Below, piece after piece: positions 10,118 to 33,650 of a DNA stretch of 64,000 bases. This DNA is from an uncultured Chloroflexia bacterium (GTDB lineage: Bacteria; Chloroflexota; Limnocylindria; Limnocylindrales; CSP1-4), in assembly GCA_963813335.1 (NCBI GenBank), contig CAWEYL010000006.1, positions 1 to 64,000 on the forward strand, in the 5' to 3' direction. The notes under the pieces were generated by a model. That model was not told the origin of the DNA. It ran no database searches and saw nothing but the letters and a program-made list of their open reading frames with translations. The translations under genes were made by a program, and so were the position numbers. The stretch's first letter is position 1, and the number at the start of each line of letters is the position of its first letter.

Positions 10118-11546
<1,429 letters not shown>

Positions 11547-11576
11547 CCGAGGGGCGCAGCGGCAGCCGGGGGGCCG

Positions 11577-13928
<2,352 letters not shown>

Positions 13929-13962
13929 GGGCGTCACTCCTGGCATCGCGTGCGACCGGGCG

Positions 13963-15081: not shown

Positions 15082-15148
15082 CGCCCACGATCGTGCCACA
15101 GTCAGGACGTTCGGTCGCGGCGCCGACGGAGCCTGACCAGCACCGACC

Positions 15149-16894: not shown

Positions 16895-17034
16895 ATCGCC
16901 CTCCGAAGTCGAGGCTGACGGTGGGATCCCGGCCAGATCGTCGTCGCACCCGCGAGAGAGGCACTATAGCCACGAGCCGTGCGCTGGGGCGCCCCTACCG
17001 GACGTGAAGCGGATGGCGCCGAGGCGGGAGACCG

Positions 17035-18423
17035 ATGGCCGAACCGACGAACAAGCCCGACACGGGGCCAGGGTCCGCGACCGCCCGTCCGACACGCGAC
17101 ACGCTTCGGGCGGCGGGTGAGGCGGCGCGACAGCCTGCCCCGCTTGCATCCATGGGCACCTGGCGAGCGGCCGCGGACCGGCCGGACCCGATCGCCCTCC
17201 TGATCGAGCAGGGCGTCAGCCGGGTCCAGGAACTGGTCCCGGTCCGCTACGGGCGGATGAGCCTGTCGCCATTCTCGTTCTATCGCGGGGCCGCCCTGCC
17301 GATGGCAGCGGACCTTGCTCCCCGTCCGAGGACCGGGATCCGGGTCCAGCTGTGCGGCGATGCCCATCTGTCGAACTTCGGGCTCTTCGCCTCGCCGGAA
17401 CGCGAGGAACTGTTCGACATCGACGACTTCGACGAGACCCTCCACGGGCCGTTCGAGTGGGACCTCCAGCGCCTGGCCGCCAGCTTGATCGTCGCCGGGC
17501 GATCGCGTGGGTTCGCGGCCCACGACAGCCGGCACGCGGTCCATCGCGCGATCCGCTCCTATCGCGAGCGGATGATCGAGTACGCCGCCATGCGCGCGAT
17601 CGACGTCTACTACTCGTCCGTGCCGGTCGCGAGCATCATGACTTTCGTCAGCAAGCGCGCGCGGCCGATGATCGAGACGGCGATGCGGTCGGCCGCCCAC
17701 CATGACGCACTCCATGAGCTGCCCAAGCTCACGGAGGTCGTCGGCGGGGGTCGGCGGATCATCGACCACCCGCCGGTGATCGTGCACCGACCCGACGTCA
17801 CGAACCCGCTCGTCGAGTCCGTGATGGCCAGCTACCGAGCATCGATGCAGGAGGATCGGCTCGTCCTGCTCGACCGCTACGAGATCGTGGACTACGCCAT
17901 GAAGGTCGTCGGTGTCGGGAGCGTCGGCCTCTTCGCGGGGGTGGTGCTGCTCGATGCGGGCTCGGGCGGCGACCCCCTGTTCCTGCAGGTCAAGGAGGCA
18001 CAGGCATCGGTCCTGGAGCGGTTCCTCGGCCCCAGCGGCCAGCCGAGCCACGGAGCCCGGGTGGTCGCCGGCCAACGCCGCCTGCAAGCGGCGAGCGACG
18101 TCCTGCTCGGGTGGGCGGTCGGACCGCAGGGCCACCACTGGTATGTCCGCCAGCTGCAGGACCAGAAGGCCAGCGCCGTCGTCGAGGCGATGACGGTGGA
18201 GGATCTGATCGCCTGGGGTGAACTGTGCGGCTGGGCGCTCGCCCGCGGCCACGCCAGGTCCGGCGAACCGTCCACGATCGCCGGTTACCTCGGCACGGAC
18301 GACGCCTTCGACCGCGCGATGGGCACCTTCGCCGAGGCGTACGCGGACCAGACTGAACGCGACTTCGACGCGTTCACCGCGGCCATCAGCTCCGGCCGGA
18401 TCGCGGCTGAAACGGGCGTCTAG
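17035..18423 (+). CDS. DUF2252 family protein (kinase-like fold)
   Basis: RYGRMSLSPFSFYRG, CGDAHLSNFG, FDIDDFDE, KVVGVGSVG, LARGHARSG. Confidence 0.9.
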   Translation: MAEPTNKPDTGPGSATARPTRDTLRAAGEAARQPAPLASMGTWRAAADRPDPIALLIEQGVSRVQELVPVRYGRMSLSPFSFYRGAALPMAADLAPRPRTGIRVQLCGDAHLSNFGLFASPEREELFDIDDFDETLHGPFEWDLQRLAASLIVAGRSRGFAAHDSRHAVHRAIRSYRERMIEYAAMRAIDVYYSSVPVASIMTFVSKRARPMIETAMRSAAHHDALHELPKLTEVVGGGRRIIDHPPVIVHRPDVTNPLVESVMASYRASMQEDRLVLLDRYEIVDYAMKVVGVGSVGLFAGVVLLDAGSGGDPLFLQVKEAQASVLERFLGPSGQPSHGARVVAGQRRLQAASDVLLGWAVGPQGHHWYVRQLQDQKASAVVEAMTVEDLIAWGELCGWALARGHARSGEPSTIAGYLGTDDAFDRAMGTFAEAYADQTERDFDAFTAAISSGRIAAETGV

Positions 18424-18429
18424 GTCCGG

Positions 18430-18618
18430 TCAGGCCAGCGCGATCCGGATGCGCTTGTTGATGCGCCCCTTGGACTCGTAGCCGGTCACCCGGATCGCGC
18501 CCACCTCGCGGGTGTTGGCGACGTGGGTCCCGCCGTCGGCCTGGAGGTCCAGGCCGACGATCTCGATCGTGCGGATCTCCTCGATGCCTTCGGGGAGCAG
18601 GTTGACCTTGGTCCGGAT
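18430..18618 (-). pseudogene. alaX: Displaced native 3' end of the alanyl-tRNA editing gene (alaX)
   Basis: Translates IRTKVNLLPEGIEEIRTIEIVGLDLQADGGTHVANTREVGAIRVTGYESKGRINKRIRIALA* (62 aa), homologous to the C-terminus of ORF 28687-29436. Host-like GC3 codons and no start codon. Confidence 0.93.
18599..18618 (+). repeat. Left attachment site (direct repeat)
   Basis: AGGTTGACCTTGGTCCGGAT, 19/20 identical to 28865-28884; identical core GTCCGGAT at 18611-18618. Confidence 0.88.
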
Positions 18619-18750
18619 GATCCTGTCCCTTATCGCTTAGCAAACGCGGGATCACGCACGACCCCAGTTTGCTACGTTCACGGTGTTATGTCAGGGAATC
18701 CCGCACGACACAGCGGCAATGTCGGCTCGCCGTGACTCCGCCACTGTCGG

Positions 18751-19746
18751 TCAGGGGAGCTTCGCGATCGCAGCCTCGACAGCATCTGCCTCTCCCGCCA
18801 CGTGCACCACGAGAGCGTCACGTGACCAGAAGGCGACGGTGAACTCGTGACCTGACGCCCACTTGACAGTGCGTCCCGCAATCTCCCGCTGCTGCCACTT
18901 CCCCCGCGACGGCAGGTAGATGGCTGTACCAAACTCCGCGTCGAGGCGCTCCGCAGTGACCCCCGGCACGCCGTAGAGGCTGACGGTGAGCACGCCTGGT
19001 CCAGTTCCCCCCATCGCCGTCACGACTACGGCGTCGCGCGGTCGCGTGTCCAGCCGCTTGAGCGCCCTGTTGACGAGCGATGACCCCCAATGCGTCGCGC
19101 TAACCGAGGACACATCCATTGGTGGCGACGTGAGATCAGTCGGGATGAGCGCCTCAAGGTCCGGCGCCTCGTGCGGCATCTGCTCAGGCGTGGGCGGCCG
19201 TCCGACGGTGGCGCCGAGCTCTGCGGCGATCTCCGCCGTGACGCGTTCGATCTCCTCGAGCGACATCTCACGTGGTGGTGCGAACGAGGCGTTCGCTTGC
19301 CACGGGGTCGGTTCGTCGCTCTCGGGCTCGGGCGGTGGCTTCGGGCGTCCATCCGCTACCCAGTCTGCGTACAAGCGGTCCAGCGCTGGAGCGATCCGCG
19401 CGTAGCTGGCGGGATCGTCACCGACCGAATAGTCGGGTTCGTCGGCGAACACTCTGCCGTACTCGTCCACGTACGCGGAGTACCGCGCATCGCTGAACGC
19501 GCGCCCCTCAGCGTTCATGTCGGCTGGGAGGAGTTTCGTATCGATGTCGTCGGCGAGGTCTGACCCCGTCATCTCGCCTTGCTTCACGGCGACAACGTGA
19601 GACGCCGGAAACACCTTCGGGTTGTGGAGGTCGTGTCGGATGATCCATGCCAGGTAGAACCCGATGTGAGTGAACGCGTTCTCCGGTGGCTGACCCGCCG
19701 CAATGGCGCTGTCGAAGTGCCAGTCGAGTCTGTCGTATGTAGCCAT
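18751..19746 (-). CDS. Cargo protein: DUF7832-like N-terminal domain fused to a host lipoprotein-like C-terminal domain
   Basis: N-term YDRLDWH...THIGFYLAW...MNAEGRAF; Pro-rich linker; C-term DLEALIP...EIAGRTV...IAKLP resembles the 63517-64000 protein. Confidence 0.7.
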   Translation of the reverse strand: MATYDRLDWHFDSAIAAGQPPENAFTHIGFYLAWIIRHDLHNPKVFPASHVVAVKQGEMTGSDLADDIDTKLLPADMNAEGRAFSDARYSAYVDEYGRVFADEPDYSVGDDPASYARIAPALDRLYADWVADGRPKPPPEPESDEPTPWQANASFAPPREMSLEEIERVTAEIAAELGATVGRPPTPEQMPHEAPDLEALIPTDLTSPPMDVSSVSATHWGSSLVNRALKRLDTRPRDAVVVTAMGGTGPGVLTVSLYGVPGVTAERLDAEFGTAIYLPSRGKWQQREIAGRTVKWASGHEFTVAFWSRDALVVHVAGEADAVEAAIAKLP

Positions 19747-19849
19747 GGACGGGCGACCCCCTCGCGTGCGTTCCCAAGCTGGGCCCTTTGATATGCGTCA
19801 CGGAGAGCGTAGACCCACAGGCGGACGCCGCGAGCAGTGGTGGAGCCAC

Positions 19850-21019
19850 TCAGCGACGGAGAGCGTCGGGTCGCTCGAACGGTGAGCGGTAGGCGAGGCC
19901 CGTCGACAACTCGTGGCTGCTGTTGTGCAGCTTCACGAGGCGTTCGAGCGGGTTCCGGTAGTAGTGAACACGCGTCGGCCTGATCTTCGCCGGGTTGCGC
20001 CGAGGCGCTCCCCACTTCAACCGCGCATCACCGGGCGGCGTGTGGACGGTGTCGATGCGATCGAAGTCCTCGGGAGCGCCCGACAGGAACCAGAAGTAGG
20101 ACGACGCCTCCTGCGCCTCGCGGACTTCCGACATGACCACATCCCAGTCCCTGAGGATGAGGCGAGGAGGCCGTCGCGCCATCCTGCCGTAGACCTCGAC
20201 CTCGGCGGCGGCCATCGCGATGACGTACAGGAGCACCAGCTCGCTCGCGTAGTGGTCGAACATACCCATTCGATCAGGGGTGTTGCCGCCGAAGATCGCC
20301 TCGTAGCCACGCTTCGACGGATGCGCGTATCCGCTCAGGAACCCGTAGTGCACGTCCACCTGAATGTGCTTCCCGATCAGCAGTCCGTTCACGCGCAGCG
20401 CCTTCATGACCGCCGAGCGCCGGAACAGGTGGTTCCATGCCAGCGTCTGCTCGTCCGCCAGCTGCAGCATTAGCTTCTTCTCCCAGAACGGCGCAGCGAG
20501 CCGTCCGGCGTGCCACTTCGGTCCCAGGAATGGGTCGAACCGATCGACCTCGAAGTAGTAGTTCGAGATCGTCTGACCGCGGCCCTTCTTCGACTTGTCG
20601 CTGTGGAGTCCTCGGCGGACGACGTTCAGGTGGTGTTCGCGATCCCAGAACCAGCTATGGATGTCGGACCCGTCCTTCGCCTTCGCCGCTCGAAGGTCCG
20701 CATCCCACCTCGCGGCCTCCTTCTCCTTGGCATTCGAGTAGACGACGATGTAGCGGTTCGCGAGCAGGATCAGGCGATCCATCAGGTGGTGTTCGAGCGC
20801 GGCGCGGATGACGACGAGCGCGCTCGGGTAGTACCGGGCCTCGCTCAGAAGCAGCGCCGCGCGAAGATGGTGGGCGAGTTGCCCGGTGCGCTTCGCGTGC
20901 TCCATGTGCTGCATGTGCGCCACGCCGCCTGAACTGCCACGGCTCCCGATCGTTTCGAGGAGCCTCAGCATCCGCTCCGCGTGGGCAGGCAGCGTGCCGT
21001 GATCGTCCGTTGCGGTCAT
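19850..21019 (-). CDS. Cargo protein, DUF5677/HEPN-like (putative defence)
   Basis: Long ORF with IRAALEH and YGFLSGYAHPS motifs. Start uncertain (ORF open to 21133). Confidence 0.6.
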   Translation of the reverse strand: MTATDDHGTLPAHAERMLRLLETIGSRGSSGGVAHMQHMEHAKRTGQLAHHLRAALLLSEARYYPSALVVIRAALEHHLMDRLILLANRYIVVYSNAKEKEAARWDADLRAAKAKDGSDIHSWFWDREHHLNVVRRGLHSDKSKKGRGQTISNYYFEVDRFDPFLGPKWHAGRLAAPFWEKKLMLQLADEQTLAWNHLFRRSAVMKALRVNGLLIGKHIQVDVHYGFLSGYAHPSKRGYEAIFGGNTPDRMGMFDHYASELVLLYVIAMAAAEVEVYGRMARRPPRLILRDWDVVMSEVREAQEASSYFWFLSGAPEDFDRIDTVHTPPGDARLKWGAPRRNPAKIRPTRVHYYRNPLERLVKLHNSSHELSTGLAYRSPFERPDALRR

Positions 21020-21280
21020 CGGCACCGATGGTAGGCCGCCATCGGTTGCCGAGTTTCCGAAGATCGGTGGGACGGCCCTGGGACGAGCGCGGTCGCTGAG
21101 GCGGCTGGCAAGGACGACGAGCGACGATCGCACGCGATCCGACCACAGACAGGGGCGCGTCAGAGCGACCGCCTAATCCGCGTTGTTTTGGACAGGACAT
21201 GAAGGGCGCGCAGGCAGACGACAGCCCACGCGCCCCATTGCCCGATCCGTGCGCGCCCGGCTGACGCGCGGTGGGCGTGT

Positions 21281-22165
21281 CTAGTCGGTTGCCGTGGGCA
21301 ACTCGATGCCGAGTTCCTGCGCGAGGACCGGTGCCTCGCGCTGCCGCTGGTAGTCGGCCATCTTCACGACGTTGGAGGCGCGGATCTGCTCAACCGGCGT
21401 TCCGATCTTGTGGGCGACGCGAGACGCAGCGATGTCTCGCCGCGACAGTTCGAGTTCGTCCTGCGCCATCACCTCGATCTCGACCGCCTGCCGTCGATGA
21501 GGCACCGTCTTGTCGAGGTGGTGAGCGATCTCGCGATCGAGGTTGCCGTCGTCAGCGCCGACCTTCCTCGCTGCCGCGAGGTACTTCTGCGCGGCGTCGA
21601 GGTTGCCTGCCTGGAGCAGGCGCCGTGCCTCAGGGAGGAGGATGTTCCGCGCCTGCGCCCGCGATGGGTACTGCTCGGCGAGCGCGTTCGCCTCCATCTG
21701 CTCGCGGAGGCGGCGCATCTCGACCGCCGGATCGCCGACAGGATCGGACGCGCGCAGACGCGCTGCCTCCGTCCGCTGCCCGTGGTGCCACAGGAGCATC
21801 TCGCGCGAGTGACTCGTTTCGAGCGCGGCCAACTCCTTGAGGATCGCTGCGCCCTCGCGCTGGCGGTACTCGATGGGGTACCGATCTGACTGCGACTCGC
21901 TGTACCTCGCAGCGATCGCCGCGTACTGCTCGCGGAACGTCTTGCGCAGCGTTCGTGCCTTGTCTCTGCTCACCTTGACCTCCTGTTCTTGCTTGACTGA
22001 CTGGGCGATGGGTCCTCGGCGTGCGCGCAGCACGCCAATCTCCTGCTGGATCGCCTCGCGACGTTCAGGGGACGCTGGCGGCGTGCCCCACGCCCCGTCG
22101 CGTTCGAGCGCGAGCAGCAGCAACTTGTGGTCGATCGCTTGCAGGCGATCACGCGGCGTGGGCAT
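21281..22165 (-). CDS. Hypothetical alpha-helical/coiled-coil protein (294 aa)
   Basis: TGATG overlap with the upstream nuclease gene; E/R/A/Q-rich helical sequence. Confidence 0.75.
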   Translation of the reverse strand: MPTPRDRLQAIDHKLLLLALERDGAWGTPPASPERREAIQQEIGVLRARRGPIAQSVKQEQEVKVSRDKARTLRKTFREQYAAIAARYSESQSDRYPIEYRQREGAAILKELAALETSHSREMLLWHHGQRTEAARLRASDPVGDPAVEMRRLREQMEANALAEQYPSRAQARNILLPEARRLLQAGNLDAAQKYLAAARKVGADDGNLDREIAHHLDKTVPHRRQAVEIEVMAQDELELSRRDIAASRVAHKIGTPVEQIRASNVVKMADYQRQREAPVLAQELGIELPTATD

Positions 22166-22812
22166 CAGTACGGGTCCGACGATGCATCGCGCGAGGTGAC
22201 GAGGACCCCTGACCGCGACAGGTAGCGCGACTGACCCGACCCGATCCGCCAGTAGGTCGCGAGCATGAGCGCGACGATCAGGTCATCGTGGTCGCGACCG
22301 TCGCGCAGCGCCTCGTACGTGTCCGCGCCGCTCTGCGAGAACTTGGCGCGGAACGAGGCGTGCTGCTTCGCGATTTCCTTCCGCAGCGGAGTGTCGCGGA
22401 CGGCGATCTGACCGCTGCTCAACTTCGCCTCGTACTTGCCGACGAGGTTCCGCTTCGCGAGGTGCCCGCCGTTGTCGAGGATGCCCGCGGTCAGGATGAT
22501 CGGCTGCGCCCACAGCCTCAGACGACCGTCCCGTTTGGCCTGGCGGAACATGTCCTCGTAGACGGCACCGACCCCTGTCGCGTCGAACAGGAGGCGCGCG
22601 TCTTCGAGGCCTTCCCTCCCCATGACCGCGAGGGTGTCCGTCACGACCGACGTGTGCGGCGTGCCCAGTGCCCACTGCTGGGCGTAGGCGACGTCCCACC
22701 GCCATCGGTCGTGGTCCTGTGGGGCGTCCCTCGCGAGCATGATCCGCTCGACGATCACGAGCGCCGCCGGGTCCTGACGCTGACCCGGATCGAGGGCAAC
22801 AACAAGGTTCAT
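22165..22812 (-). CDS. Terminase large subunit nuclease (RNase H-like) domain as a stand-alone gene
   Basis: VVALDPGQRQDPAALVIV, FDATGVG, HDDLIVALMLA (acidic triad); own RBS GAGGAGGT and ATGA overlap. Confidence 0.82.
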   Translation of the reverse strand: MNLVVALDPGQRQDPAALVIVERIMLARDAPQDHDRWRWDVAYAQQWALGTPHTSVVTDTLAVMGREGLEDARLLFDATGVGAVYEDMFRQAKRDGRLRLWAQPIILTAGILDNGGHLAKRNLVGKYEAKLSSGQIAVRDTPLRKEIAKQHASFRAKFSQSGADTYEALRDGRDHDDLIVALMLATYWRIGSGQSRYLSRSGVLVTSRDASSDPY

Positions 22813-23570
22813 CTGGCCACCTCCTCAAAGAGGCCCGGCATGCCCTCGCCTTGCGCGAGCATCCGAGCGATGTCGTCTGGGCGGAAGATCGCGTCCGACG
22901 TGGACACGAACGCGCACTCGTACTCCTGCTGGTAGACCCACGACCCCAGCGACCGACGCTCCTCCTCGAGGAAGTCCGCGGAGATGCGCGGCACAGCGGA
23001 CGCCGGAACCTCGTACCGCTCCCACCCAGGACCGCCGTTCGCCCACGCGTCCCACCACCAACCGCGCTGACCGAACGGCGTGCTCAGGGCGATCAGGCGC
23101 CCGCCCGTGACCGCGAGCATCGGACGCACGGCGGCGTACATGTCGTCATCGATCCGCGATGCCTCGTCGAGGATCAGGAGGTCTGCCGAGAACCCGCGCA
23201 CCGTGCTCTCGGACGCCGGCAGCGAGATCACGCGCGACCCGTTCTCCGCTGTGAGGGTCGTCTGGTTGTCGCCTGTCTTGACGAGCGCGAGTTCCTTCCA
23301 CAGGTGGCGGACCTTGCCTGCGACCTCGCTCGACTGGCGCAGGCCCGCGGACACGATCAGGACGACGGAGTCAGGGACGCTGCTCGCCTGATGGACAGCG
23401 GCGACCGCTGCCGTCGTGCTCTTGCCGCTCTGGCGGCAGCAGTTCCACAACTGGCGCGGATGCCGCGACCGGAGCGCGCCGCGCTGCCAGTCGTCCGGCG
23501 TCATGCCGATCGACGAGCACAACTCGACTGGATCGAGCGCGCGGAGCAGATCGCGCGCGAGGGAGGTCAT
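22809..23570 (-). CDS. Terminase large subunit ATPase domain (Terminase_6-like) as a stand-alone gene
   Basis: Q-motif PDDWQ, Walker A CCRQSGKST, Walker B LLILDEASR, motif III ALSTP, and QEYECAF. Confidence 0.9.
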   Translation of the reverse strand: MTSLARDLLRALDPVELCSSIGMTPDDWQRGALRSRHPRQLWNCCRQSGKSTTAAVAAVHQASSVPDSVVLIVSAGLRQSSEVAGKVRHLWKELALVKTGDNQTTLTAENGSRVISLPASESTVRGFSADLLILDEASRIDDDMYAAVRPMLAVTGGRLIALSTPFGQRGWWWDAWANGGPGWERYEVPASAVPRISADFLEEERRSLGSWVYQQEYECAFVSTSDAIFRPDDIARMLAQGEGMPGLFEEVAR

Positions 23571-24067
23571 GCCTCGATCCTCCGCAGCGCGTTCGTCACG
23601 TCCGCGAGCGCGTCAGGGTGCCGCTGCAACGCCGCGAGGATCGTCATGCGCGTCCGCACCCACTCGTCGGACGTGGACAGGTTGAGCACCTGCACCGTCG
23701 ACTGGTTCTCGGGGCGCAGCTCGCCGCTCAGGCGTGCCAGCAACTCGATCGAGGCGCGCAGTTCGCGCGAGGCGCCCAGCAGCATCGACTCACGCTTCTC
23801 GTCGTGCGTCCGGTTGACGAGCGCCTCCAACTTCGAGACGAGGCCTTCGACGCGGTCGCGCGCGGTCGTCTCGATCTGGACGGCGGTCCCCTGCTCCGCG
23901 CGAAGCGCCGTCAGCGCCATCGACATGTGCCGGTCGCGATGCCGACGCAGCGCGTCGCGATCCATCGAGAACTGACGCCCAACGGCGGACAGCGAGCGTC
24001 CGGACACGATCAGCGCCTCGATCGCTGCCTTGTCCTCTGATGTGCAGGTGCGGCAGTACCCAGCCAT
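23567..24067 (-). CDS. Putative terminase small subunit (CxxC/HxxxH-flanked HTH plus coiled coil)
   Basis: MAGYCRTC...SLSAVGRQFSMDRDALRRHRDRH, then a helical region; directly upstream of and coupled (ATGA) to the TerL ATPase. Confidence 0.7.
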   Translation of the reverse strand: MAGYCRTCTSEDKAAIEALIVSGRSLSAVGRQFSMDRDALRRHRDRHMSMALTALRAEQGTAVQIETTARDRVEGLVSKLEALVNRTHDEKRESMLLGASRELRASIELLARLSGELRPENQSTVQVLNLSTSDEWVRTRMTILAALQRHPDALADVTNALRRIEA

Positions 24068-24525
24068 CAGCGCTGCTCCTGCCGCGATGCCTGCGCGAGT
24101 GCGCGCTCTCGCTGGCCGACGGGCTCCGGGGCGCCGGTCGCCAGATGTAGAGGGTGGGGGGTGGCCACACGTCGCACGGTCGGAACGCGGTCGCGGTTGA
24201 CGTAATCCGAGGTGGAGCGACCTGCGATCGACCGCGACCGCGAACCTGGACCTGCCGACCGATGCCTGACGTAACGGTGGGCAACCTGCGCCTGGCATCG
24301 ATCGCGGTCGGACCCGCTAGGAACGGATGCCCGTCCAACGTCCACGGCGGACGTGCCGTGTCTCATGAGCACACTCCTCATCGCTTTCACCACTCGATTG
24401 CACGCGTCGATCGCTCGCACGCACTCAGCGCTACGCGCCTCTGAGTGCGAGCGAAATCGCCTTTCGCTTGCACCGTCGCGTTCACCGGTGCAAGCGACCG
24501 ACTGCAAGCGACGAACCGCCTTCAC
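24067..24525 (-). CDS. Hypothetical ORF (possibly spurious; overlaps the repeat cluster)
   Basis: Start and stop overlap both neighbours (GTGA, TGATG), but no recognisable motifs. Confidence 0.35.
   Translation of the reverse strand: MKAVRRLQSVACTGERDGASERRFRSHSEARSAECVRAIDACNRVVKAMRSVLMRHGTSAVDVGRASVPSGSDRDRCQAQVAHRYVRHRSAGPGSRSRSIAGRSTSDYVNRDRVPTVRRVATPHPLHLATGAPEPVGQRERALAQASRQEQR
24411..24512. repeat. Inverted/direct repeat cluster, candidate replication origin or packaging site
   Basis: IR TCGCTCGCAC/GTGCGAGCGA (24411-20/24445-54); IR TCGCTTGCACCG/CGGTGCAAGCGA (24464-75/24486-97); DR TGCAAGCGAC (24489-98, 24503-12). Confidence 0.55.
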
Positions 24526-26321
24526 GCCGCACCGCCATCGAGTCGGAACACGCGCTTGTGCGACTTCCCCTGCGCGTCTGACTCGATCGCTTGGAGGTCG
24601 TGCAGGTCGGCGCGGATGGTGTTCGGCGACGCCGCGATGCCTTCTCGCGCCAGCGCGCTCCGCACCTCCTCGACAGACAGCGCGGCATCCGTGAGCAGCG
24701 CAGTGATCGCCTCGCGTCGCTTCCGCTGGTCGCCGCGCAGCGCTTGCGCTCGACTGACGCGCATGGCGATCACGCCCTCGCCTGACCCGCGATCCGCGTA
24801 GCGCTGCGTGTCGCGGTCGTAGGACAGGAGGAAGTAGGTCGGTTCGACCACTCGCCCCTTGACGTTGACCACGCGGTCGTCCGCGTCGCCGTTGGGGTCA
24901 GGCGCGAACTCGGCAAGGATGTCCACGGACGACGTGAGCGCGGTCGATCCTCGCGCCCTCGCGTCGTCCTTGCGGAAGTGGTGGACGACGATCACGGCGG
25001 CGCCAGCACGCGCGACGGTCGAGCGGATCAGCGCGATCGATCCCGTGACTTCGGCGGCGTCGTTCTCGTTCTCGATCCCTGCCCATTGAGCGAAGGTGTC
25101 GATGACGACGACCTCCGCTCTGCCTGCCTTCACCTCTCGCGAGGCGAGCACGAGCGCGTCCGTGAACGTCAGCGACGCTGCGACCGCCTCGGCGTACGCA
25201 AGCGTCCGTGCGCGCACGTCGTAGCGGTCGAGTTTCAGCGTGATCGGAGGTCCCCACTCCTCGGTGAGGATCAGCACCGACGCCTTCCTGATCGCGCGCC
25301 CGAGGAACATGTCGCCGCGCGTCAGGTGCCCCAACAGGTCGGACAGGAAGGACGACTTGCCTGCCTTCTCAGGACCCGACAGCAGCGTGATCCCTGATCG
25401 GTACAGGAGCGGATGCCAGATCCAGTCGAGGTTGGTTGGCATGATCGCCCCCAACTCCGACCGCGTAAGGAAGACGTGCGCCTCGTCAGGCGACGGCAGA
25501 TCGCGTCCACCCGCGAGGTGCCAGGCACGCCAATCCTTGCCGCCGCCCGTCAGAGGGTCGTAGTCAGGCGGTCGGATCGTCGCGACGTCCAACCCTGCGG
25601 CAACGATGCGGGCAGATAGTTCGCTTGAACCGTCGCTGCCTTCGGCGTCCGCATCGAAGGCGACAACGATCTTGCCCACGCCTCGCCGCCGCAGAGCGTC
25701 GATCTGAGAATGCGTCAGCGCGGTTGCTGCGCCTTTGGTGATGGCGAACGCGTCGATGCCGCGCGAGCGCAGGACGATGCAGTCGGATTCGCCTTCGGTA
25801 AGCACGATCGACGAGGGGTACTCGTCGAGCAGCGGCCAGATCGGAGGCGCCTTCGCCCCCTTCGGTGCCCATCCGTGTTCGCCGGTCAGCGGATCGCGCG
25901 TGCGGACGACGCTCGTGCCGCTGAACGTGAAGGCAACCTTGCCCTCGCGCTCCTCGATCGGCAGCGTGCCGACGAACCCGCGATCCACGCCGCAGTAGTC
26001 GGCGTACCAATCGAGCGGCGCCTGTCGCGTCCGTCGAGGCAGCGCGGTCAGGGGCGACACCTCGCTGCTGGTGGCGATGGAGACGTGACCGTTGCGCCGA
26101 CTGCCATCGACCGCTGCGACCACGTCGGCGTATCCGCATCCTGCGAAGCAGCGGACGAGGGCATCGCGCCCCTTCCGCTCCGTGACGTGCAGCGACGGTC
26201 GCCCGTCGTCGTGCGATGGGCAGCGCGCCATGATCGACCCGTCGCCCTGGTCTTCGATCGCGTCGAGGTGCGCGCGCCAGTAGCGCAGGTCGCGGACGCC
26301 GCGCGTGTTGACGGTCACCAT
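24522..26321 (-). CDS. Primase-helicase (Zn-binding + TOPRIM + AAA_25/RecA-like + C-terminal wHTH)
   Basis: CPSHDDGRPSL...CFAGC; LTEGESD...FDADAEG; Walker A SGPEKAGKS; Walker B VVVIDT; HHFRK...RGSTAL. Confidence 0.88.
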   Translation of the reverse strand: MVTVNTRGVRDLRYWRAHLDAIEDQGDGSIMARCPSHDDGRPSLHVTERKGRDALVRCFAGCGYADVVAAVDGSRRNGHVSIATSSEVSPLTALPRRTRQAPLDWYADYCGVDRGFVGTLPIEEREGKVAFTFSGTSVVRTRDPLTGEHGWAPKGAKAPPIWPLLDEYPSSIVLTEGESDCIVLRSRGIDAFAITKGAATALTHSQIDALRRRGVGKIVVAFDADAEGSDGSSELSARIVAAGLDVATIRPPDYDPLTGGGKDWRAWHLAGGRDLPSPDEAHVFLTRSELGAIMPTNLDWIWHPLLYRSGITLLSGPEKAGKSSFLSDLLGHLTRGDMFLGRAIRKASVLILTEEWGPPITLKLDRYDVRARTLAYAEAVAASLTFTDALVLASREVKAGRAEVVVIDTFAQWAGIENENDAAEVTGSIALIRSTVARAGAAVIVVHHFRKDDARARGSTALTSSVDILAEFAPDPNGDADDRVVNVKGRVVEPTYFLLSYDRDTQRYADRGSGEGVIAMRVSRAQALRGDQRKRREAITALLTDAALSVEEVRSALAREGIAASPNTIRADLHDLQAIESDAQGKSHKRVFRLDGGAA

Positions 26322-26512
26322 CGTCCACCGCCTGCCGTTGACACGACCCCGCGTGCTTCGCCGACGATCGATGGGCGCGGTGGGTTCAAGTGACGTTGAC
26401 GCCGCGCATCCCTTCCCCACCTGAGGTGACGGCATGGACAGGATCGACCACGTGACCCGCGAGACAACGGACGTGTGCTTGGAACTCGTGCAACAAGCGC
26501 TCGCGGAGGCAT
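26315..26512 (-). CDS. Hypothetical small ORF
   Basis: Fills the gap between coupled genes (TAG-ATG junction); no motifs. Confidence 0.3.
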   Translation of the reverse strand: MPPRALVARVPSTRPLSRGSRGRSCPCRHLRWGRDARRQRHLNPPRPSIVGEARGVVSTAGGGRW

Positions 26513-26809
26513 CTACGCGTCCTCCTCGATCGCGAACGGCACGTACCCGCACAAGCACCCGTATCGCTCTTCCAGTCGGTGTGCGAGCAGCGTTCGGATC
26601 ACCGTTGCCGCCTTCGCACGAGGACTCATCTCCTCGTCCGTGAACTGGGCGTCAAGCGAGGCGTAGAAGAGGCGGATCGCCGCGCCGCCAGCAGGCGACC
26701 TGAACTCCTCCCATCGCGCCGCGCCGTGGGCGCAGGCGAGCGTGATCGACCGCAATCCACGGTTATCTGGGCGGACAAGCAACTCCGCCCAACGCTCCTC
26801 GTCGGTCAT
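26513..26809 (-). CDS. Hypothetical protein (98 aa)
   Basis: ATGA overlap with the upstream gene; Cys/His motifs CAHG and H...YGCLC. Confidence 0.6.
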   Translation of the reverse strand: MTDEERWAELLVRPDNRGLRSITLACAHGAARWEEFRSPAGGAAIRLFYASLDAQFTDEEMSPRAKAATVIRTLLAHRLEERYGCLCGYVPFAIEEDA

Positions 26810-27102
26810 CGCGGCACGACTCGCAGCGCACGCCGATCGCGCTCGCGCTTCTCGACCATGCGGAGGAAGTGCATCCGCTGGGCGCGACGCGCGGCGAGGG
26901 TGCGTGCCGCCTCGCCGAGGTCAGGTGAGATCGTCACGTCGCACCCGAGCGAGCAGACGTGCCGCGTGCCGAACGTCGCGAGGAACGCCTCACGTGCCTG
27001 CTCGGTCATCGAGGCAGGGTCAGCGGCGCGGTTGATCGCCTTCTGCAGACCGCCGAGGCGACCAGCGCGAGCGCGCTTCTCGTGGAGCGTCAGTCCGTCC
27101 AC
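26806..27102 (-). CDS. Hypothetical protein (98 aa), basic
   Basis: RARAGRLGG...DPASMTEQAREAFLATF...ARRAQRMHFLRM; resembles small proteins of high-GC integrative elements; coupled to neighbours. Confidence 0.65.
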   Translation of the reverse strand: MDGLTLHEKRARAGRLGGLQKAINRAADPASMTEQAREAFLATFGTRHVCSLGCDVTISPDLGEAARTLAARRAQRMHFLRMVEKRERDRRALRVVPR

Positions 27103-27326
27103 GACAACGCCGCCTTGATCTTCGCGAGGGAGGTCGGACCCGGACGGATGACGCCGATCTCGTAGGCGGCGATCGACGTCTGTGGGACCTTCGCGATCGT
27201 CGCGAGGTCCATCTGCGACATGCCGAGCGTGATGCGTCGCTCGGTCATCTCACGTGCGAATGGAGAACGCGCAGCGAGCACGTCCTGTGGGATCAGCGCA
27301 GGTCCACGGGACCCACCGCGAGGCAT
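27090..27326 (-). CDS. XRE/Cro-like HTH protein
   Basis: RRITLGMSQMDLATIAKVPQTSIAAYEIGVIRP. Confidence 0.8.
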   Translation of the reverse strand: MPRGGSRGPALIPQDVLAARSPFAREMTERRITLGMSQMDLATIAKVPQTSIAAYEIGVIRPGPTSLAKIKAALSWTD

Positions 27327-27358
27327 AAGAAAACCCGTCTCCTTTCAAGGAGACGGGT
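27327..27358 (-). terminator. Intrinsic terminator-like hairpin downstream of the integrase
   Basis: Perfect 11-bp stem ACCCGTCTCCT/AGGAGACGGGT (27333-43/27348-58), 4-nt loop, followed by TTTCTT on the minus strand. Confidence 0.65.
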
Positions 27359-27611
27359 GCTGGTCGTCCGTTGCCTGCCGTGGCAGGTCGTCCCGTTCTT
27401 ACAACACGCTTCGCTGGCGAACCCGTCGGTCGATATTCGGTTCCTGCCCCCGATACTTGGCGACTTGGCGATGGTTGTCAACTCGACCAATGATCGACGT
27501 AGAACGTCGGTTTCGACGGTCGCTGACACGGCGGAGGGGCGTCGCTGGGTATCGACGCCCCTCGGGATCGTTCCTCCTGTCAGCGACCGTTCTGCGCGGT
27601 CGCGCGACCCG

Positions 27612-28568
27612 TCACACGAGGTCGCCAGGCGCACCTTGGGCGAAGTAGGCGGCACGCGCGCGCTCGTCCGCGGCGGAGGCACCGTAGCGCTGGAGCATCT
27701 CCGGCGATGACCACCCCATCAGGCGCATGAGCGCGTTCTCCTGCATGCCACCCTTGAGGTTGAGGTGCGCCGCCGTGTGGCGGAACTGGTGCGGATGCAC
27801 GTGCGCCAATCCGGCAGCGCGCGTCCGCTCCACCAACAGGTTGTTGAGCGCCGGAGGTTCCATCTGAGCGCCCATCTGCGACACCCACAGGAACGGCGAC
27901 GCGGCGTACTTGTGCGTTCGGCGGAGGCGGAGGTATCGCTGCAACGCCTGCGCCGACTTCGCACCGAACGGCACCACGCGTGCCTTCTTGCCCTTCGCGT
28001 TCTCGTGGCGGACTTGGACGAGGTGCTGATCGAGCAGCACATCGTCCATATGCAGGCCCATGAGTTCAGCGCGCCGCATCCCCGTGTCGAGCAGCAGGCG
28101 CAGGATCGCCGTGTCGCGACGATCGGCGAACGTCTTGCCTGAGCAGGCGTCGAGCAGCGCGCGCAGGTCCTCGATCGAGAGCACAGGCACGGGTTCCGTC
28201 GGTTTGGTCGGCGCCTGCATGCCGCGCATCGGCGTCTTCTCGACGATCTCCTCGTTGACCGCGAAGTTGAAGAACGCTCGAAGGCCCGCGTACCGCGTGT
28301 TTGCCGTGCCGGCGGAGTGCTTGCCCAACTGATCCGTCATGAACGCCTGGAGCATCGCGCGAGTGATCTCCGGCGTGCTGCGCGGGTACCCACGATCACC
28401 TAGGAAGCGATCCAGCGTCGCGAGCGTGAGGCGGTACGACTCGACCGTGCTGGGCGAACTGTTCCTCGCGCGCAGCGTGTCCGCGAACCACTGGAAGTCG
28501 GACATGAGCTGCGACGGCGCGGCGCTCGGAAGGGCGATCAGGTTGTTTGCAGCGGACGAGCGGGGCAT
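27612..28568 (-). CDS. int: Tyrosine recombinase/integrase
   Basis: DTGMRRAEL (R), AKGKK (K), HQFRH (HxxR), LMGWSS (W), LQRY (Y); N-terminal SAM-like domain; RBS AAGGAG. Confidence 0.95.
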   Translation of the reverse strand: MPRSSAANNLIALPSAAPSQLMSDFQWFADTLRARNSSPSTVESYRLTLATLDRFLGDRGYPRSTPEITRAMLQAFMTDQLGKHSAGTANTRYAGLRAFFNFAVNEEIVEKTPMRGMQAPTKPTEPVPVLSIEDLRALLDACSGKTFADRRDTAILRLLLDTGMRRAELMGLHMDDVLLDQHLVQVRHENAKGKKARVVPFGAKSAQALQRYLRLRRTHKYAASPFLWVSQMGAQMEPPALNNLLVERTRAAGLAHVHPHQFRHTAAHLNLKGGMQENALMRLMGWSSPEMLQRYGASAADERARAAYFAQGAPGDLV

Positions 28569-28686
28569 GACGGTGACTCCTTGCGACCGATCTTACGTCG
28601 GCGGCTGCGCATCCTGAGTTCCGTCTCCGAATAATGTCAACCAACATCGCTGTGGCAACGGATTAGGTCAACCAGAAGGTTGACGA

Positions 28687-29436
28687 TTATTCGTCCACCA
28701 GTGCGATCCTGATCCGCTTGTTGATCCGCCCCTTCGACTCGTACCCCTGAACACGAATCTGACCAACTTCGCGCGTGTTCGAGACGTGCGTCCCACCGTC
28801 GGCCTGCAAGTCAAGCCCGACGATTTCTATCGTCCGAATCTGCTCGATGTCTTCAGGCGGCAGAAGGTTGACCTTTGTCCGGATCAGGTCCGGGATCGCG
28901 AACGCCTCGGCGCGCGGGAGGACGTTGACCTTGACGTCGCGCTGGGCGGCCAGCTCGCGGTTGACGGTCGCCTCGATCTCGTCGACGAGGTCGCCCGACA
29001 TCCGCTCGAACTCGAAGTCCATCCGCGCGGTCCCGGGCTCCATGTTGCCGCCCGTGACATGGGCGCCGTAGTCGCGCCACACGACCCCGCAGAGGGCGTG
29101 CAGCGCGGTATGGGTCCGCATGAGGGTGAGACGGCGCGCCCAGTCGAGGTCGACCTCGACGAGGTCGCCCACCGCGGGCGGGCCATCGTCGTCGGGCTCG
29201 AGCTCGTGGACGATCTCGCCATCGGCCTTGCGCGCGGAGCGGACCGTCCACGACCGCCCGTCCGCGGTCCGCAGGATGAGACCGCGGTCGGCCGGTTGCC
29301 CGCCGCCGCCCGGATAGAAGACCGTCCGGTCGAGGACGACCAGAACGGCGTCGCCCGCCTCGATCGCGACGACGCGCGCCGCGACGCGCTGCAGGTAGGC
29401 GTCCGAATAGGCGAGCTGCTCGCCGCTGGGTGTCAT
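28687..29436 (-). CDS. alaX: Alanyl-tRNA editing protein (AlaX-M type), chimeric: 3' end supplied by the element
   Basis: TVFYPGGGGQPAD, MRTHTALH, DLQADGGTH. The segment from the att core to the stop (28687-28884) is element-derived. Confidence 0.92.
   Translation of the reverse strand: MTPSGEQLAYSDAYLQRVAARVVAIEAGDAVLVVLDRTVFYPGGGGQPADRGLILRTADGRSWTVRSARKADGEIVHELEPDDDGPPAVGDLVEVDLDWARRLTLMRTHTALHALCGVVWRDYGAHVTGGNMEPGTARMDFEFERMSGDLVDEIEATVNRELAAQRDVKVNVLPRAEAFAIPDLIRTKVNLLPPEDIEQIRTIEIVGLDLQADGGTHVSNTREVGQIRVQGYESKGRINKRIRIALVDE
28865..28884 (+). repeat. Right attachment site (direct repeat)
   Basis: AGGTTGACCTTTGTCCGGAT; core GTCCGGAT at 28877-28884. Confidence 0.88.
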
Positions 29437-29938: not shown

Positions 29939-30200
29939 GGGTGAAGAGGCACCTTTCGTGGGCTGGGCGGGTCCATCGGGTCGTGGTCCCTCATGAATCT
30001 ATCCCGCGGGCGGCGTCCTGTCGCGCCGGCGACGGGCGTGGCGGCGCGGGCCCGACCACCTCACGTAGTACTTCTGGGCTATCCACCCCGGACCATCGGG
30101 CCGGTTGTGGCTCCCCGACCACGCGGCCTAGTCTCGCCATCCACCTCCCGGACCCGGTGGGTGGCAGACGACACCAAACAGCTGGATCGGAGCTTTCCCG

Positions 30201-30302
30201 ATGATCAAGGAATACGTTGGGCGGGCCTGGAAGCTCGCTGTGACCGTCGGACCGCTCGTCGCGGTCGCCCTCGCCCTCGCCGCTGGTACCAAGTGGCACT
30301 AG
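30201..30302 (+). CDS. Small hydrophobic peptide (33 aa), not in the ORF track
   Basis: MIKEYVGRAWKLAVTVGPLVAVALALAAGTKWH*, GGAG RBS at 30189-30192, downstream terminator. Confidence 0.6.
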   Translation: MIKEYVGRAWKLAVTVGPLVAVALALAAGTKWH

Positions 30303-30381
30303 AGGCGAACTGAACCTCGCTGTCTCATTTCGCTGCTTCGCCAGGAGTCCATTCCGAAACGAAGCGATAGGCGACCCTCGG

Positions 30382-30410
30382 AACCCGGAGACCCTCCCTC
30401 CGGGTTTCGT
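30382..30410 (+). terminator. Intrinsic terminator
   Basis: Stem AACCCGGAG/CTCCGGGTT (30382-90/30398-406), 7-nt loop, T-rich tail. Confidence 0.6.
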
Positions 30411-30430
30411 GGTGTCTGGGGTCGGATCCC

Positions 30431-33400
30431 CTAGCGCGGCGCCCGCTCGGTCAGGCCGAGCCGGATCGCCACCGCGGCTGCCTCCACGCGGCCCGACACC
30501 TCGAGCTTCGACAGGATGTTCCCGACGTGGACGCCGACCGTCTTCTGGCTGATGAAGAGGCGCTCCCCGATCTCGCGGTTGGTGCGGCCCTGCGCGACGA
30601 GCGCGAGGACCTCCCGCTCCCGCCCGCTCAGCCCGAAGGTGTCCGGGCGTCTCGTGGTCGGGGCCGGGTCGCCGGCGATCGTCCGGACCAGCGCGGACCG
30701 GCCGTTCCCGTCGTGCGACCCGCCCGCGTCGACCGGGACGAGGACCGCCGCGGCTCCGCCCCCTTCCCCACCCGGGCGCAGCATCGCCGCCACCTCGTCC
30801 GGAAGCTCGATCCGCGCCCGGCCGGCCAGCTCCTCCAGGTCGCGAACGAGCGGCCGCGCGCCGAGGGCCACGGCCAGCCGCACGGATTCGAGCAGGGGCC
30901 GGCGGGCCGCCGCGCGACCGGATCGGGCACCGTCGGAGGCGAGCAGCGCCTCGGCCTGGCGCCAGAGAGCCAGCGCTTCCTCGTACGGCGCGTCGAGGTC
31001 GGCCCACCGGCGGGCGACCTTCGCCCAGACCGCCGCGTCGTCGTCGCCTTCGAGCCGCCGCTGGTACCCGCGCGCTGTCGCGAGGTACGCCTCGGCGATG
31101 CGCCGCGAGCCGGTGGTCGTCGGCGCACCGGACGCCTCGACCAACCCGGTCGCCACGGCCAGGACCTCCGCGGTCCGCGACCGCGCGGCGGCCAGCGGCG
31201 CGAGCTGCCGGCGCTCGTGCGCCTCGGCGCCTGCCGCGGCGTCGACGCGGGCGACCATCGCGGTCATCCGCGCGGCGAGGACCCACTCCTCGGAGGTCCG
31301 GACCAGGGCCCAGCCGCGCTCCACCGACCGTCCGGCGTCCGCGACGTCGCCACGCCACAACGCGTACGAGGCCGCCGCCAGGTAGTACGGCGCGGCCAGC
31401 TGCGGCTCGCGCAGGGCATCGAACTCGAGCACGGTCTGGCCGAGCAGCCGCCCGGCGCGCGCGCCGGATTCGGTCTCGATCTCGATGGTCGGCCAGCTGG
31501 ACGATGCCCATCAGGAAGGCGACCCCGGTCGGCCGCCAGGCCAGCGCCCGGGCGCTCAGCCGGCGCGCCTCCGGCCAGCGGCCCAGCAGGACCAGCGACT
31601 CCATGACGTTGCCCGCCAGGAAGTTGCCGTAGACCGCCTCGAGGCCCGCCTGCCGGGCGTCCTCGATGCCGCGGTAGGCGACCTCGACCGCCTCGGCCCG
31701 ACGGCCGACGAGGTCCAGCACGGTGGTCAGGTTGGCCGTCACCCGGAAGAGCGCGTCGGGGTCGTCGACCTCCCGGGCGGCGGTCTCGGCCTCGCGCAGG
31801 AGCTCGATCGCGGCGTTCGGGTCGCGTCCCCAGGCGAGCGCGACGGCGAGCGTGGTCGTGGCGTGGATCTCCTGGTCGCGGGCGGCTGGCCCGCAGGCGC
31901 GCGCGACCCTGATGGCGTCGCGCGCGAGCCGCTGGGCGTCGGAGAACAATCCGTCCAGCATCGACATCTGCGCGAACGAGGCGAGGACCGTCGCCCGCTC
32001 CGGGGTCGCGTCGCGCGGGATCAGCTCCACGGCGCGGCGAGCGGCGGCGCGCGCGCCCACCGCATCGCCGGCCGCCCGGCGGACCAGGCCCAGCCGCTCG
32101 TAGAGGAGGCCGATGCGGACGCGGTCGCGGCGGGCATCGAGCGCGCCGATCGCCGCTTCCAGGTATGCCGTCGCGCGTGAGGTCCGCCCGATGGCGAAGG
32201 CGGCCTCGGCCGCCCGCTCCTGGAGGTCGGCCCGGTCCGAGCTGCGCACGTCGACGCGGCGCCGCGATCCAGCACCCACGGTCCCGGCCCGGTCGCTGAG
32301 CGACAGCGCCAGCTCGAGGGCGTCCAGCTCGTCCGCGGCCGCGTGGCGGGCCGCGGCGAGATCCGCCGCCTCGATCGCGGACCGTCGGGCGGCCGGCGCG
32401 TCGTGCGCCTCGAGCCAGTGCCGGGCGGCCGCCGCGGGCACATCGGCCAGGGCCGCGGCCAGTGACGCGTGATGCCGGGTCCGCGCCAGCGGCAGCAGGT
32501 CCCGTTCGACCGCCGTGCCGATCAGCTCGTGCCGGAACCCCACCGCGCCGTCGCGCTCCACGAGGAACCCGTGCTCGACCGCTTCCGCCAGTCCGGCCGT
32601 GACGTCGGCGTCCAGGATCCCGTCGCCGCGCCGCGGCGAGCTGCTCGAGCGCGGCGCCGGGCGCGACGTGTCGATCTCGAAATCGGCGGCGATCCGGGCC
32701 AGCCGCGCCGGGTCCACCAGCCGCCCGGCCGGGGCCAGCAGGCGCAGCACCCGCCGGCACTCGACGGAGCGGACGGCCAGCCGCCCGACGACCAGCTCGT
32801 CGAGCGAGCCCGACAGGGAGGCGGTCGGCAGCTCGCGCCGGGCGGCCAGCAGCTCCTCGGCCACGAGCGGGCTCCCGCCGGACCGTTCGGCGACCAGCAG
32901 CAACAGGCTCGCCGACGTGCGCTCGCCCTCGATGCCTTCGATCAGCGCGGCCAGCTCCGCGCGGTCGAGCCGCGGCATCGACAGCCGCTCGAGCGGGTGC
33001 GGTGCGTCGGTGATGGTCGCCACCGCGGCGACCCACGGGTCGTCGTGCGGGATGATGTCCGGCTGGTCGGAGGCGACCAGCACGAGCCGCTGGTCCGCGG
33101 CGATCCGGGCGAGGAACGTGACCAGGCTGCGGGTCGCGGCATCGGCGCGGTGGAGGTCCTCGAGGATCAGCACCACCGGTCGCCGCTCGCCGAGCCGGCC
33201 AAGCATCCCGAGTACGCCCTCCATGGTCCGTGCCTGACGGCGTTCTGGCGCCCCCGGGCGGATCCCGTCGAACGACCAGCCACGCCGCTCGAGGTGGGCC
33301 CGCAGCGGCGGGAGCAGCCGCGCGACCTCCACTGCCGCCGGTCCGAGCACCGCATCGAGGTCGTCGTCCGGGAGCGCGGCCAGCACCGGCCCGATGGCCC

Positions 33401-33650
33401 GGACCAGCGGCCCGTACGGCTCGTCGGTGCCGGCGGGCATCGCACCACCGCGGAGGACGGTCATCGGCTCGCTCAACGCGGCGATCCGGCCGGTCGCCTC
33501 GTCGAAGAAGCGGCTGATGCCCACACCCGCGGGGCCGCTGACCAGCATCGCCCGGGCGCGGCCATGGGCCGCATCGTCGAGCACGGCCGCGAGCCGCGCG
33601 AAGGCGTCCTCGCGTCCGACGTACCGCGCGCTCACGTATCGGCCGGGCAT
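30431..33650 (-). CDS. Large ATP-binding LuxR-family (LAL/MalT-like) regulator, apparent frameshift near 31490
   Basis: YVGRE, SGPAGVGISR (degenerate Walker A), LILEDLHRAD, TPR-like helices; C-terminal LSGREREVLALVAQGRTNREIGERLFIS in ORF 30431-31432. Confidence 0.88.

Follow-up and report, generated by a model that had tools for sequence, protein, structure and literature searches.

An integrase-bearing element of about 10.3 kb in alaX of an uncultured Chloroflexota bacterium very probably supplies the 3' end of the gene it interrupts

How does a gene that is interrupted by some 10 kb of foreign DNA still encode a whole protein, and which of its two 3' ends is its own? The question is raised by alaX, predicted to be a free-standing AlaX-M-type tRNA(Ala) editing gene, in a 64,000-nt stretch of DNA (contig CAWEYL010000006.1, positions 1 to 64,000; hereafter the window) from a metagenome-assembled genome (MAG) of an uncultured Chloroflexota bacterium (7 contigs, 81% complete; genome G000 below). 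This gene (28687-29436, minus strand, 249 aa) reads unbroken into a terminal stretch, 28687-28884, which is duplicated 10,266 bp downstream at 18430-18618. We consider it highly probable that an element of ~10.3 kb (~18619-28876) was inserted in alaX by its integrase, and that its own diverged 3' end is fused to the host 5' part of the gene.

Under this explanation a tyrosine integrase would have carried out site-specific recombination at codon ~185 of alaX. The attachment site on the element (attP) would carry the element's own last 62-65 alaX codons directly upstream of the integrase gene (int), integration would fuse the host 5' part in frame to that copy, and the host's own alaX end would be left promoterless at the far junction. 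It follows from the in-frame fusion that alaX stays whole, including its tRNA_SAD domain with the motif DGGTH. The element's copy would then be inherited in the element lineage, under purifying selection, and be repeatedly patched with host sequence.

Host and element ends of alaX

An original prediction, made from the window alone, had described a native 62-aa end (18430-18618) stranded 6 nt from the stop of a DUF2252 gene, and these coordinates were confirmed: the genes are convergent, and 6 nt separate the TGA of the remnant (18430-18432) from the end of the DUF2252 open reading frame (ORF) at 18423. Protein comparison likewise bore out its description of the expressed end, a 65-aa copy (28687-28884) that is identical to the remnant at 56 of 62 residues and has one extra proline and a 2-aa extension. 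The two ends share 148 of 186 nt. A repeat search aligned 18435-18600 with 28698-28863 (79% identity) and 18593-18618 with 28859-28884 (88%), and a 20-bp repeat (18599-18618 and 28865-28884) contains a single mismatch.

Base composition and synonymous distance separate the two copies. The dN/dS ratio between them, a calculation proposed with the original prediction, is 0.063 by the Nei-Gojobori method (dN 0.072, dS 1.16). Read from remnant to element copy, the 28 third-position differences consist of 15 changes from G/C to A/T, 13 changes from C to G and none from A/T to G/C; the predicted shift of third positions toward A/T is correct in direction but describes only about half of the changes (15/28). 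The GC content at third positions (GC3) is 0.98 in the remnant, 0.94 in the alaX 5' part and 0.95 on average in host ends, against 0.73-0.74 in the element copy. Synonymous distance (pS, the proportion of differing synonymous sites) was measured against 18 alaX genes of the same genus over codons 1-60 of the repeat. Mean pS to these ends is 0.37 for the remnant, the same value as between hosts (0.37), and 0.56 for the expressed copy, an outlier. The remnant is the host-like copy, and the expressed end is of element origin.

Uninterrupted alaX, an empty site, is present in same-genus relatives. All 19 same-genus genomes with a whole alaX have the remnant-type ending, reading LLPEGI or LLPPGI, with THVANT in 18/19 (THVSNT in L008) and RVTGY in 16/19. 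The 1.5-kb flanks of these genes contain no integrase and no second copy, and the extra proline occurs in none of the 19. The remaining same-genus genomes have no alaX match (G002 and G018), a frame-broken alaX (G017 and G022) or a weak match only (G003, E 8e-16, of the kind that alaS genes give). Element-free relatives with the 28687-type ending had been named in the original prediction as evidence that would speak against it. Inside the genus there are none; outside it the objection has weak force, because some element-free alaX genes of other genera share part of the 28687-type signature.

Recurrence at alaX and exchange of its 3' end

The same architecture recurs in other genomes. An integrase search of 301 genomes of the same family, with 110 matching at E <= 1e-30, yielded only three integrases at least 67% identical to that of the window: in G296, of the same genus (95%), and in G219 (70%) and G278 (67%, truncated), both of another genus. 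Each of the three lies beside alaX and is oriented alike, and a host-type remnant follows 10.8, 16.7 and 2.7 kb downstream, respectively, so the search suggested with the original prediction, for integrase homologues beside alaX with duplicated 3' ends, succeeded in these three genomes. A further integrase, found in a scan of one genome per species (L059, 98%), also adjoins alaX, on a contig that stops after int, too early for a remnant. Because the architecture recurs in these other assemblies (G296, G219, G278 and L059), chance is excluded. Contigs of public sequencing runs contain related elements, and those of three runs from three studies bridge the left attachment junction (attL) at 85-95% identity. 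Three unpublished genomes (G121, G231 and G393) enter only the 301-genome tally, the 401-genome tally given next and one of the 26 tRNA loci described below.

Relics at the same site lie in two further genera. A search of the DNA of 401 family genomes revealed tandem alaX ends that lack an integrase in G417, at a distance of 1.86 kb, and in G392, at 2.26 kb; six further genomes (G049, G134, G356, G386, G400 and G430) also gave two matches. In both relics the expressed copy has an element-type tail followed by the post-stop inverted repeat, and the distal copy is host-type. The segment with this repeat is kept after the element-type alaX stop in G296, L059, G219, G278, G417 and G392.

The element has also travelled. 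That of G296 has the same core at 95-99.6% protein identity and different cargo, and that of G219 keeps the gene order at 27-70% protein identity. The elements of G000 and G296 match at 94.1% over 5,278 nt, against 71-81% identity in the flanking chromosome and 77% protein identity in the alaX 5' parts. Because the similarity of the element far exceeds that of the flanking chromosome, we conclude that it moved recently between species. Among the cargo of the 16.7-kb G219 element (L054, 7516-9589) are genes for an N6/N4 DNA methylase and for a protein resembling a proteasome subunit.

The nearest sequence relatives of the alaX integrase target tRNA genes, whereas integrases of the alaX clade (at least 67% identity) have a protein gene as their target. 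For the next-nearest integrases, 41-50% identical and from the same bacterial family (loci L026-L052), 25 of 26 loci (24 of 25 without L039, which comes from the unpublished genome G121) have a tRNA gene no more than ~270 nt from where the integrase gene starts. These tRNAs are Gly-TCC (9), Met (6), Lys (3), Gly-CCC (2), His (2), Arg (2) and Thr (1), and in the two loci read, L027 and L028, the 5' end of the tRNA faces the integrase gene. Mimicry of such a tRNA target was considered and rejected: no sequence resemblance was found between the tRNA-Gly regions and the alaX site (best local match 12 nt).

Two processes appear to shape the borrowed end. The element copies of G000, L059 and G219 share the derived residues THVS, VGQI, VQGY and a terminal VDE before the stop, and between G000 and G219 synonymous sites are saturated (pS 0.74, dN/dS 0.03). 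Shared derived residues at saturated synonymous divergence point to long descent within the element lineage under purifying selection. The long-term selection proposed in the original prediction is thus supported (dN/dS 0.03-0.06), but recombination patches the copies as well. Six duplicated sites were compared (G000, G219, G296, G278, G417 and G392). Differences between the two copies of G000, and between those of G219, are spread evenly from position 9 onward. In the other four the expressed copy equals or nearly equals the remnant through the 5' part and diverges beyond: the first mismatch falls at position 51 in G296, 67 in G278 and 114 in G392, and in G417 one codon differs (27-30) before the next difference at 117. 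This near-identity at 4/6 sites indicates that patching acts besides selection. We infer that some excisions may proceed by homologous recombination inside the 190 bp, which would pass a host-type 5' segment to the element and leave an element-type patch in the host.

Parts of the element signature are also found in element-free alaX of other genera, namely the rare ATA-GAA codon pair (G375 and G349) and the ending QIRVQGY...VVDE (G256). Painting of 17 element-type sites, defined from three element copies and 20 host copies, found element-type states in the single-copy alaX of G375 (7), G256 (6), G251 (4) and G349 (4). The host set comes almost entirely from one genus, so the painted states may reflect introgression, native variation or a donor lineage, and the signatures themselves may be patches, relics or the ending of the lineage that donated the element's copy. 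A wider reading is that the alaX 3' end is a long-used docking site throughout the family, where element-borne and host ends are repeatedly exchanged, where decay fixes the element's end as the host's only end, and where the C-terminal active-site quarter of AlaX evolves largely through alleles shuttled by a satellite-like element; we put this forward tentatively, as a possibility that has somewhat more against it than for it.

The exchange point can be bounded. One and the same octamer opens the homology between element and host in G000, G296, G219 and G392. The copies of G000 first differ at homology position 9 and next at position 21. The latter is the first state that the element copies of G000, L059 and G219 have in common and that is rare among hosts, so within the window the exchange is confined to homology positions 1-20 (28865-28884). 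At position 6 the L059 junction reads C, against G in every other element-side copy, and the G219 expressed copy turns element-type by position 15. If all elements share one site, an exchange at positions 7-14 may tentatively be proposed. Placement of the crossover in GTCCGGAT, as originally predicted, was not established, the window bounding the exchange only to the first 20 bp.

The replaced part of the protein holds an active-site motif. The Pfam domain tRNA_SAD covers residues 200-242 of the fused 249-aa protein, within the replaced part, and the claim that DGGTH lies there was confirmed: the motif falls inside the tRNA_SAD match and aligns with CGGTH of Pyrococcus AlaRS (2zze). At this CxxxH position both copies and all 19 relatives have DGGTH, a Cys-to-Asp variant and putative metal ligand, and the HxxxH motif (HTALH) aligns with HTGTH of 2zze. 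By its sequence the product is AlaX-M-like and not a certified equivalog, scoring 258.7 bits against the NCBIfam AlaXM (NF040865) equivalog cut-off of 300 with profile positions 2-233 of 234 covered. Of the six substitutions in the expressed end, four match residues that also occur among the 19 same-genus AlaX endings. The D-for-G change and the Q of RVQGY are absent from these endings, and the Q occurs in G256 and G417, of other genera. L059 and contigs of three other samples lack the extra proline. Because most substitutions occur in relatives and the proline is missing elsewhere, a large change in editing activity would not be expected.

Gene content and competing explanations

The element is compact. 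From the new alaX stop the order is a 118-nt spacer, the tyrosine integrase gene (which starts 118 nt past that stop), a terminator-like hairpin, an HTH_3 (helix-turn-helix) protein gene, two small ORFs and the primase-helicase gene. Beyond the last follow genes for a 166-aa protein, the two ORFs of a large terminase (TerL; ATPase and nuclease-like), a 294-aa helical protein, a 427-aa protein of unknown function and a DUF7832 protein (Table 1).

Table 1. Coordinates of the two alaX ends, the element between them and the adjoining host gene in the window. Structure models are from AlphaFold2 (AF2); attR, right attachment junction.
Feature	Coordinates	Strand	Evidence and remarks
DUF2252 gene, convergent host neighbour of the alaX remnant	17035..18423	+	Pfam PF10009, E 2.8e-135; beside alaX in 0/19 same-genus loci
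Native alaX 3' end remnant, attR-side copy	18430..18618	-	62 codons + stop; GC3 and pS in text
attR copy of 20-bp repeat	18599..18618	-	One mismatch; homology with element copy starts at 18618
Conserved inverted repeat, distal arm of element beside attR	18639..18673	-	7-nt arms, 21-nt spacer; same motif in G296 and G219 attR flanks
Cargo gene with DUF7832 domain	18751..19746	-	Pfam PF25191, E 3.3e-22; absent from G296 element
Cargo gene, 427 aa	19850..21133	-	No Pfam, PHROG, NCBIfam or PADLOC match; Atlas: hypothetical proteins only
Core protein, 294 aa, all-helical	21281..22165	-	96% identical in G296, 35% in G219; AF2 pLDDT 88
Probable nuclease half of split TerL, 215 aa	22165..22812	-	phrog_27743, E 4.6e-20
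TerL ATPase half, 253 aa	22809..23570	-	Terminase_6N, E 6e-12; phrog_7579, E 1.7e-59; 4-nt overlap with next ORF
166-aa protein just upstream of TerL	23567..24067	-	HTH-like N-terminal region and long helices; 166 aa is the length annotated in databases; AF2 pLDDT 81
Primase-helicase	24522..26558	-	Pfam AAA_25, E 1.6e-24; Toprim_2, E 3.5e-9; PHROG primase and primase/helicase families
HTH_3 (Cro/CI-type) regulator	27090..27326	-	Pfam PF01381, E 5.6e-6; PHROG transcription regulators
Terminator-like hairpin after int	27333..27358	-	11-bp stem and T-run; pattern match only
Tyrosine integrase	27612..28568	-	Pfam Phage_integrase, E 5e-30, and SAM-like N domain; phrog_1, E 1.1e-51
Segment between new alaX stop and int	28631..28684	-	Inverted repeat (7-nt arms, 4-nt spacer, 28667-28684); promoter-like site 28631-28658
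Element-borne replacement alaX 3' end, attL-side copy	28687..28884	-	65 codons + stop; DGGTH and tRNA_SAD; GC3 and pS in text
attL copy of 20-bp repeat	28865..28884	-	Strand exchange placed inside; first element-shared, host-rare state at homology position 21 (28864)
Host-derived alaX 5' part	28885..29436	-	184 codons; GC3 in text

The integrase scores 105 bits against a cut-off of 27.1 for PF00589 (tyrosine recombinase). Residues R165/166, K192-195, H260, R263, W286 and Y295 are invariant across four integrase homologues; in our reading of the alignment these R, K, H-x-x-R, W and Y columns are probably the catalytic residues and the enzyme appears intact. The TerL ATPase half is 51% identical to residues 1-231 of the TerL of Thermus phage Riverbug, and the nuclease-like ORF aligns with residues 305-399 of the same protein (31% identity, E 3e-5). 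ATPase and nuclease are not on one polypeptide, as they are in the TerL of Riverbug and MMP17, single proteins of ~417 aa. This split is kept in three elements: the window (22165-23570, minus strand), G296 (L053, 10547-11949) and G219 (L054, 11857-13270). From its gene position and modeled shape, the 166-aa protein is possibly the small terminase (TerS).

PADLOC gave no match for the cargo. The 427-aa cargo gene is largely missing from the G296 element, with no protein match and nucleotide similarity resuming only at 21094. In Atlas, core and cargo proteins fall in hypothetical clusters only, with a DUF5677 link on 18% of one cluster. A Sf6 small terminase match in Foldseek (rank 9, E 3.1) was not taken as evidence.

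Genes downstream of alaX vary among same-genus genomes, the conserved neighbour being pntB, which ends near 11550 in the window. In G023, pntB follows ~40 nt after alaX; other same-genus genomes have unrelated genes there. Between pntB and the remnant (11550-18430), the window has genes for a UvrA-like ABC ATPase, a TrkA-N/ion-channel protein, a SulP permease and the DUF2252 protein, a variable region beside the attachment site. The pntB ORF itself (10118-11704, plus strand) has an in-frame match only to profile positions 3-276 of 456, and the pntB matches of relatives run on to about 11550 (tblastx), so a pntB frameshift or an assembly indel may be present. Upstream of alaX lies a gene for a 1,219-aa AAA_16 ATPase (29991-33650, minus strand) with 75-80% GC, against 65-70% in its surroundings. 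A tRNA-Ile gene with anticodon TAT is found at 37119-37195 (minus strand); bacteria usually read AUA by a lysidine-modified CAT tRNA, and the TAT anticodon is uncommon.

Several observations count against integrase-mediated insertion with replacement of the alaX end. No excised circle, attP junction or same-population empty site was seen, and the native DUF2252-alaX junction that the original prediction expected in relatives was found at none of the 19 same-genus loci, which proved to be empty sites instead. Scans of IMG/VR and JGI metagenomes, with the integrase alone and with a 4-sequence alignment, returned no close integrase relative. Public sequencing runs each contain at most 16% of the element's words, too little for a read test of either junction in this assembly. 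Both alaX 3' copies of G296 carry 1-nt indels at nearly the same place (L053, ~6426 and ~17196), and the alaX genes of G017 and G022, which are few-contig assemblies, show similar frame breaks; in all three genomes these are either broken alaX genes or long-read indel errors. Two kinds of candidate were set aside: the IMG/VR and JGI integrases L060-L066, only 24-28% identical, and joints that skip ~10.4-10.7 kb (18566/18618 to 29006-29282), which have short sides of 22-38 nt at 85% likeness and were not counted as empty sites.

Could the two ends be an assembly artefact, or could the roles be reversed, with the 28687-type end native and the 18430 fragment foreign? The window is drawn from a MAG of 7 contigs and 81% completeness, and misassembly is excluded only by recurrence in independent assemblies. 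That recurrence is broad: the two-copy layout stands in G296, G219, G278, G417 and G392, and the attL junction also in L059 and in the contigs of three other runs. Reversal is at odds with the host-like GC3 of the 18430 copy and its distance to the 18 same-genus genes, and with the position of the integrase beside the other copy. These possibilities are largely refuted, and we give them next to no chance. Insertion and loss by homologous recombination through the ~190-bp alaX homology, rather than by an integrase at a defined core, would draw on a long homology (186 nt, 80%) and would account for the host-like 5' part at 4/6 duplicated sites, as expected of crossovers inside homology. Yet an integrase with invariant R, K, H-x-x-R, W and Y columns, to all appearance intact, lies beside attL, homology begins at the same octamer in four independent elements, the G000 and G219 copies differ from position 9 on, and the distant integrase relatives sit at tRNA genes in 25/26 loci, as site-specific integrases do. 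We regard it as very improbable as a substitute; homologous exchange probably adds to the action of the integrase and does not replace it.

Whether the inserted DNA is still mobile is a separate matter. It could be a phage-satellite-like island, one that would replicate its DNA and pack it into the particles of another phage, and judging from its genes we would give this roughly equal chances of being right or wrong. The genes by which a satellite would be recognised, an integrase, a regulator, a replication gene and packaging gene(s), are present. Against a satellite stand the absence of a helper prophage in the 81%-complete genome, which has no other Terminase_6N or Phage_capsid match, and the uncertain TerS; Foldseek, queried with the confident AF2 models of two core proteins (294 aa and 166 aa), returned nothing at E <= 0.001. 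The element may instead be a decayed prophage remnant without structural genes, no longer mobile alone or with a helper, with integration and end replacement as described. Searches with Pfam, PHROGs and NCBIfam recognised no capsid, portal or tail genes, four core ORFs having no assignment; TerL lies in two ORFs, which could be a pseudogenising break; and there are clear relics at the same site in G278, G417 and G392. However, the compact gene order and the TerL split are kept both in G296 (95-99.6%) and in the distant G219 (27-70%), and the element is far more alike between two species than their chromosomes are, which indicates recent movement. Homologues of two core proteins, the 294-aa and 166-aa proteins, occur on many metagenome contigs of 9.3-11.8 kb, near the size of the element, which as a lead may be free or separately assembled element copies. 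Decay is, on balance, rather unlikely.

Significance and comparison with known elements

Well-documented gene-end-replacing elements in essential-type protein genes are few, and the integrated alaX element adds to them a new target gene and a barely studied phylum. Intact elements, relics and empty sites over four genera form a natural series in which the divergence, functional upkeep and host swapping of borrowed gene ends can be followed. The integrase with its attP of ~200 bp is a possible site-specific tool for bacteria without a genetic system. To our knowledge, no phage satellites have been described in the host phylum, and this compact element, with a terminase but no recognised capsid gene, is a candidate for the first phage satellite of its lineage. 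The satellite-like nature and the family-wide gene-end exchange are the parts that could raise the significance of the locus.

Phage-inducible chromosomal islands (PICIs), including the capsid-forming kind, measure ~10-17 kb. They encode an integrase, a regulator, a primase-type replication protein and one or more packaging proteins, have their variable accessory genes at one end and lack tail genes. The alaX element resembles this kind in size and gene set and differs in having a large terminase, split in two. Capsid-forming PICIs have capsid genes, whereas none were found here, and the alaX element has no known helper.

Elements that target conserved genes of translation and tRNA biology offer a second comparison. 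The dusA-specific integrases and their islands are described as a lineage dedicated to one conserved tRNA-biology gene across many genomes (Farrugia et al. 2015, PMC4482086). These elements occupy the 5' end of their gene, the alaX element the 3' end. The SXT/R391 ICEs (integrative and conjugative elements) are alike in tyrosine-integrase integration within a conserved translation-related gene; SXT differs in being a conjugative element of ~100 kb. The original prediction had cited SXT at prfC as a 3'-end replacement, which is wrong, since SXT integrates at the prfC 5' end according to an extract of the published account (PMC2654960).

The closest parallel is at icd, where phage 21 and the Escherichia coli element e14 share one arrangement. 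As described in an extract of PMC13626634 (citing Hill et al. 1989), e14 is a tyrosine-integrase element in the 3' part of a housekeeping gene, with a diverged replacement end and with the host end left as a downstream pseudogene (icdC), and its excision or recombination yields chimeric icd alleles. The alaX element differs from e14 and phage 21 in target gene, host phylum and integrase lineage. The part it replaces is about one quarter of the protein and includes a catalytic-site motif, the island is of 10 kb with no structural genes found, and its relics and mosaics are spread over at least four genera. The original prediction knew of no report of alaX as a target, and we found none in PMC open-access literature and bioRxiv, where supplementary island catalogues may list the gene. 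We conclude that alaX is a target gene not reported before for 3'-end replacement of the e14/icd type, and that the locus reveals no new mechanism.

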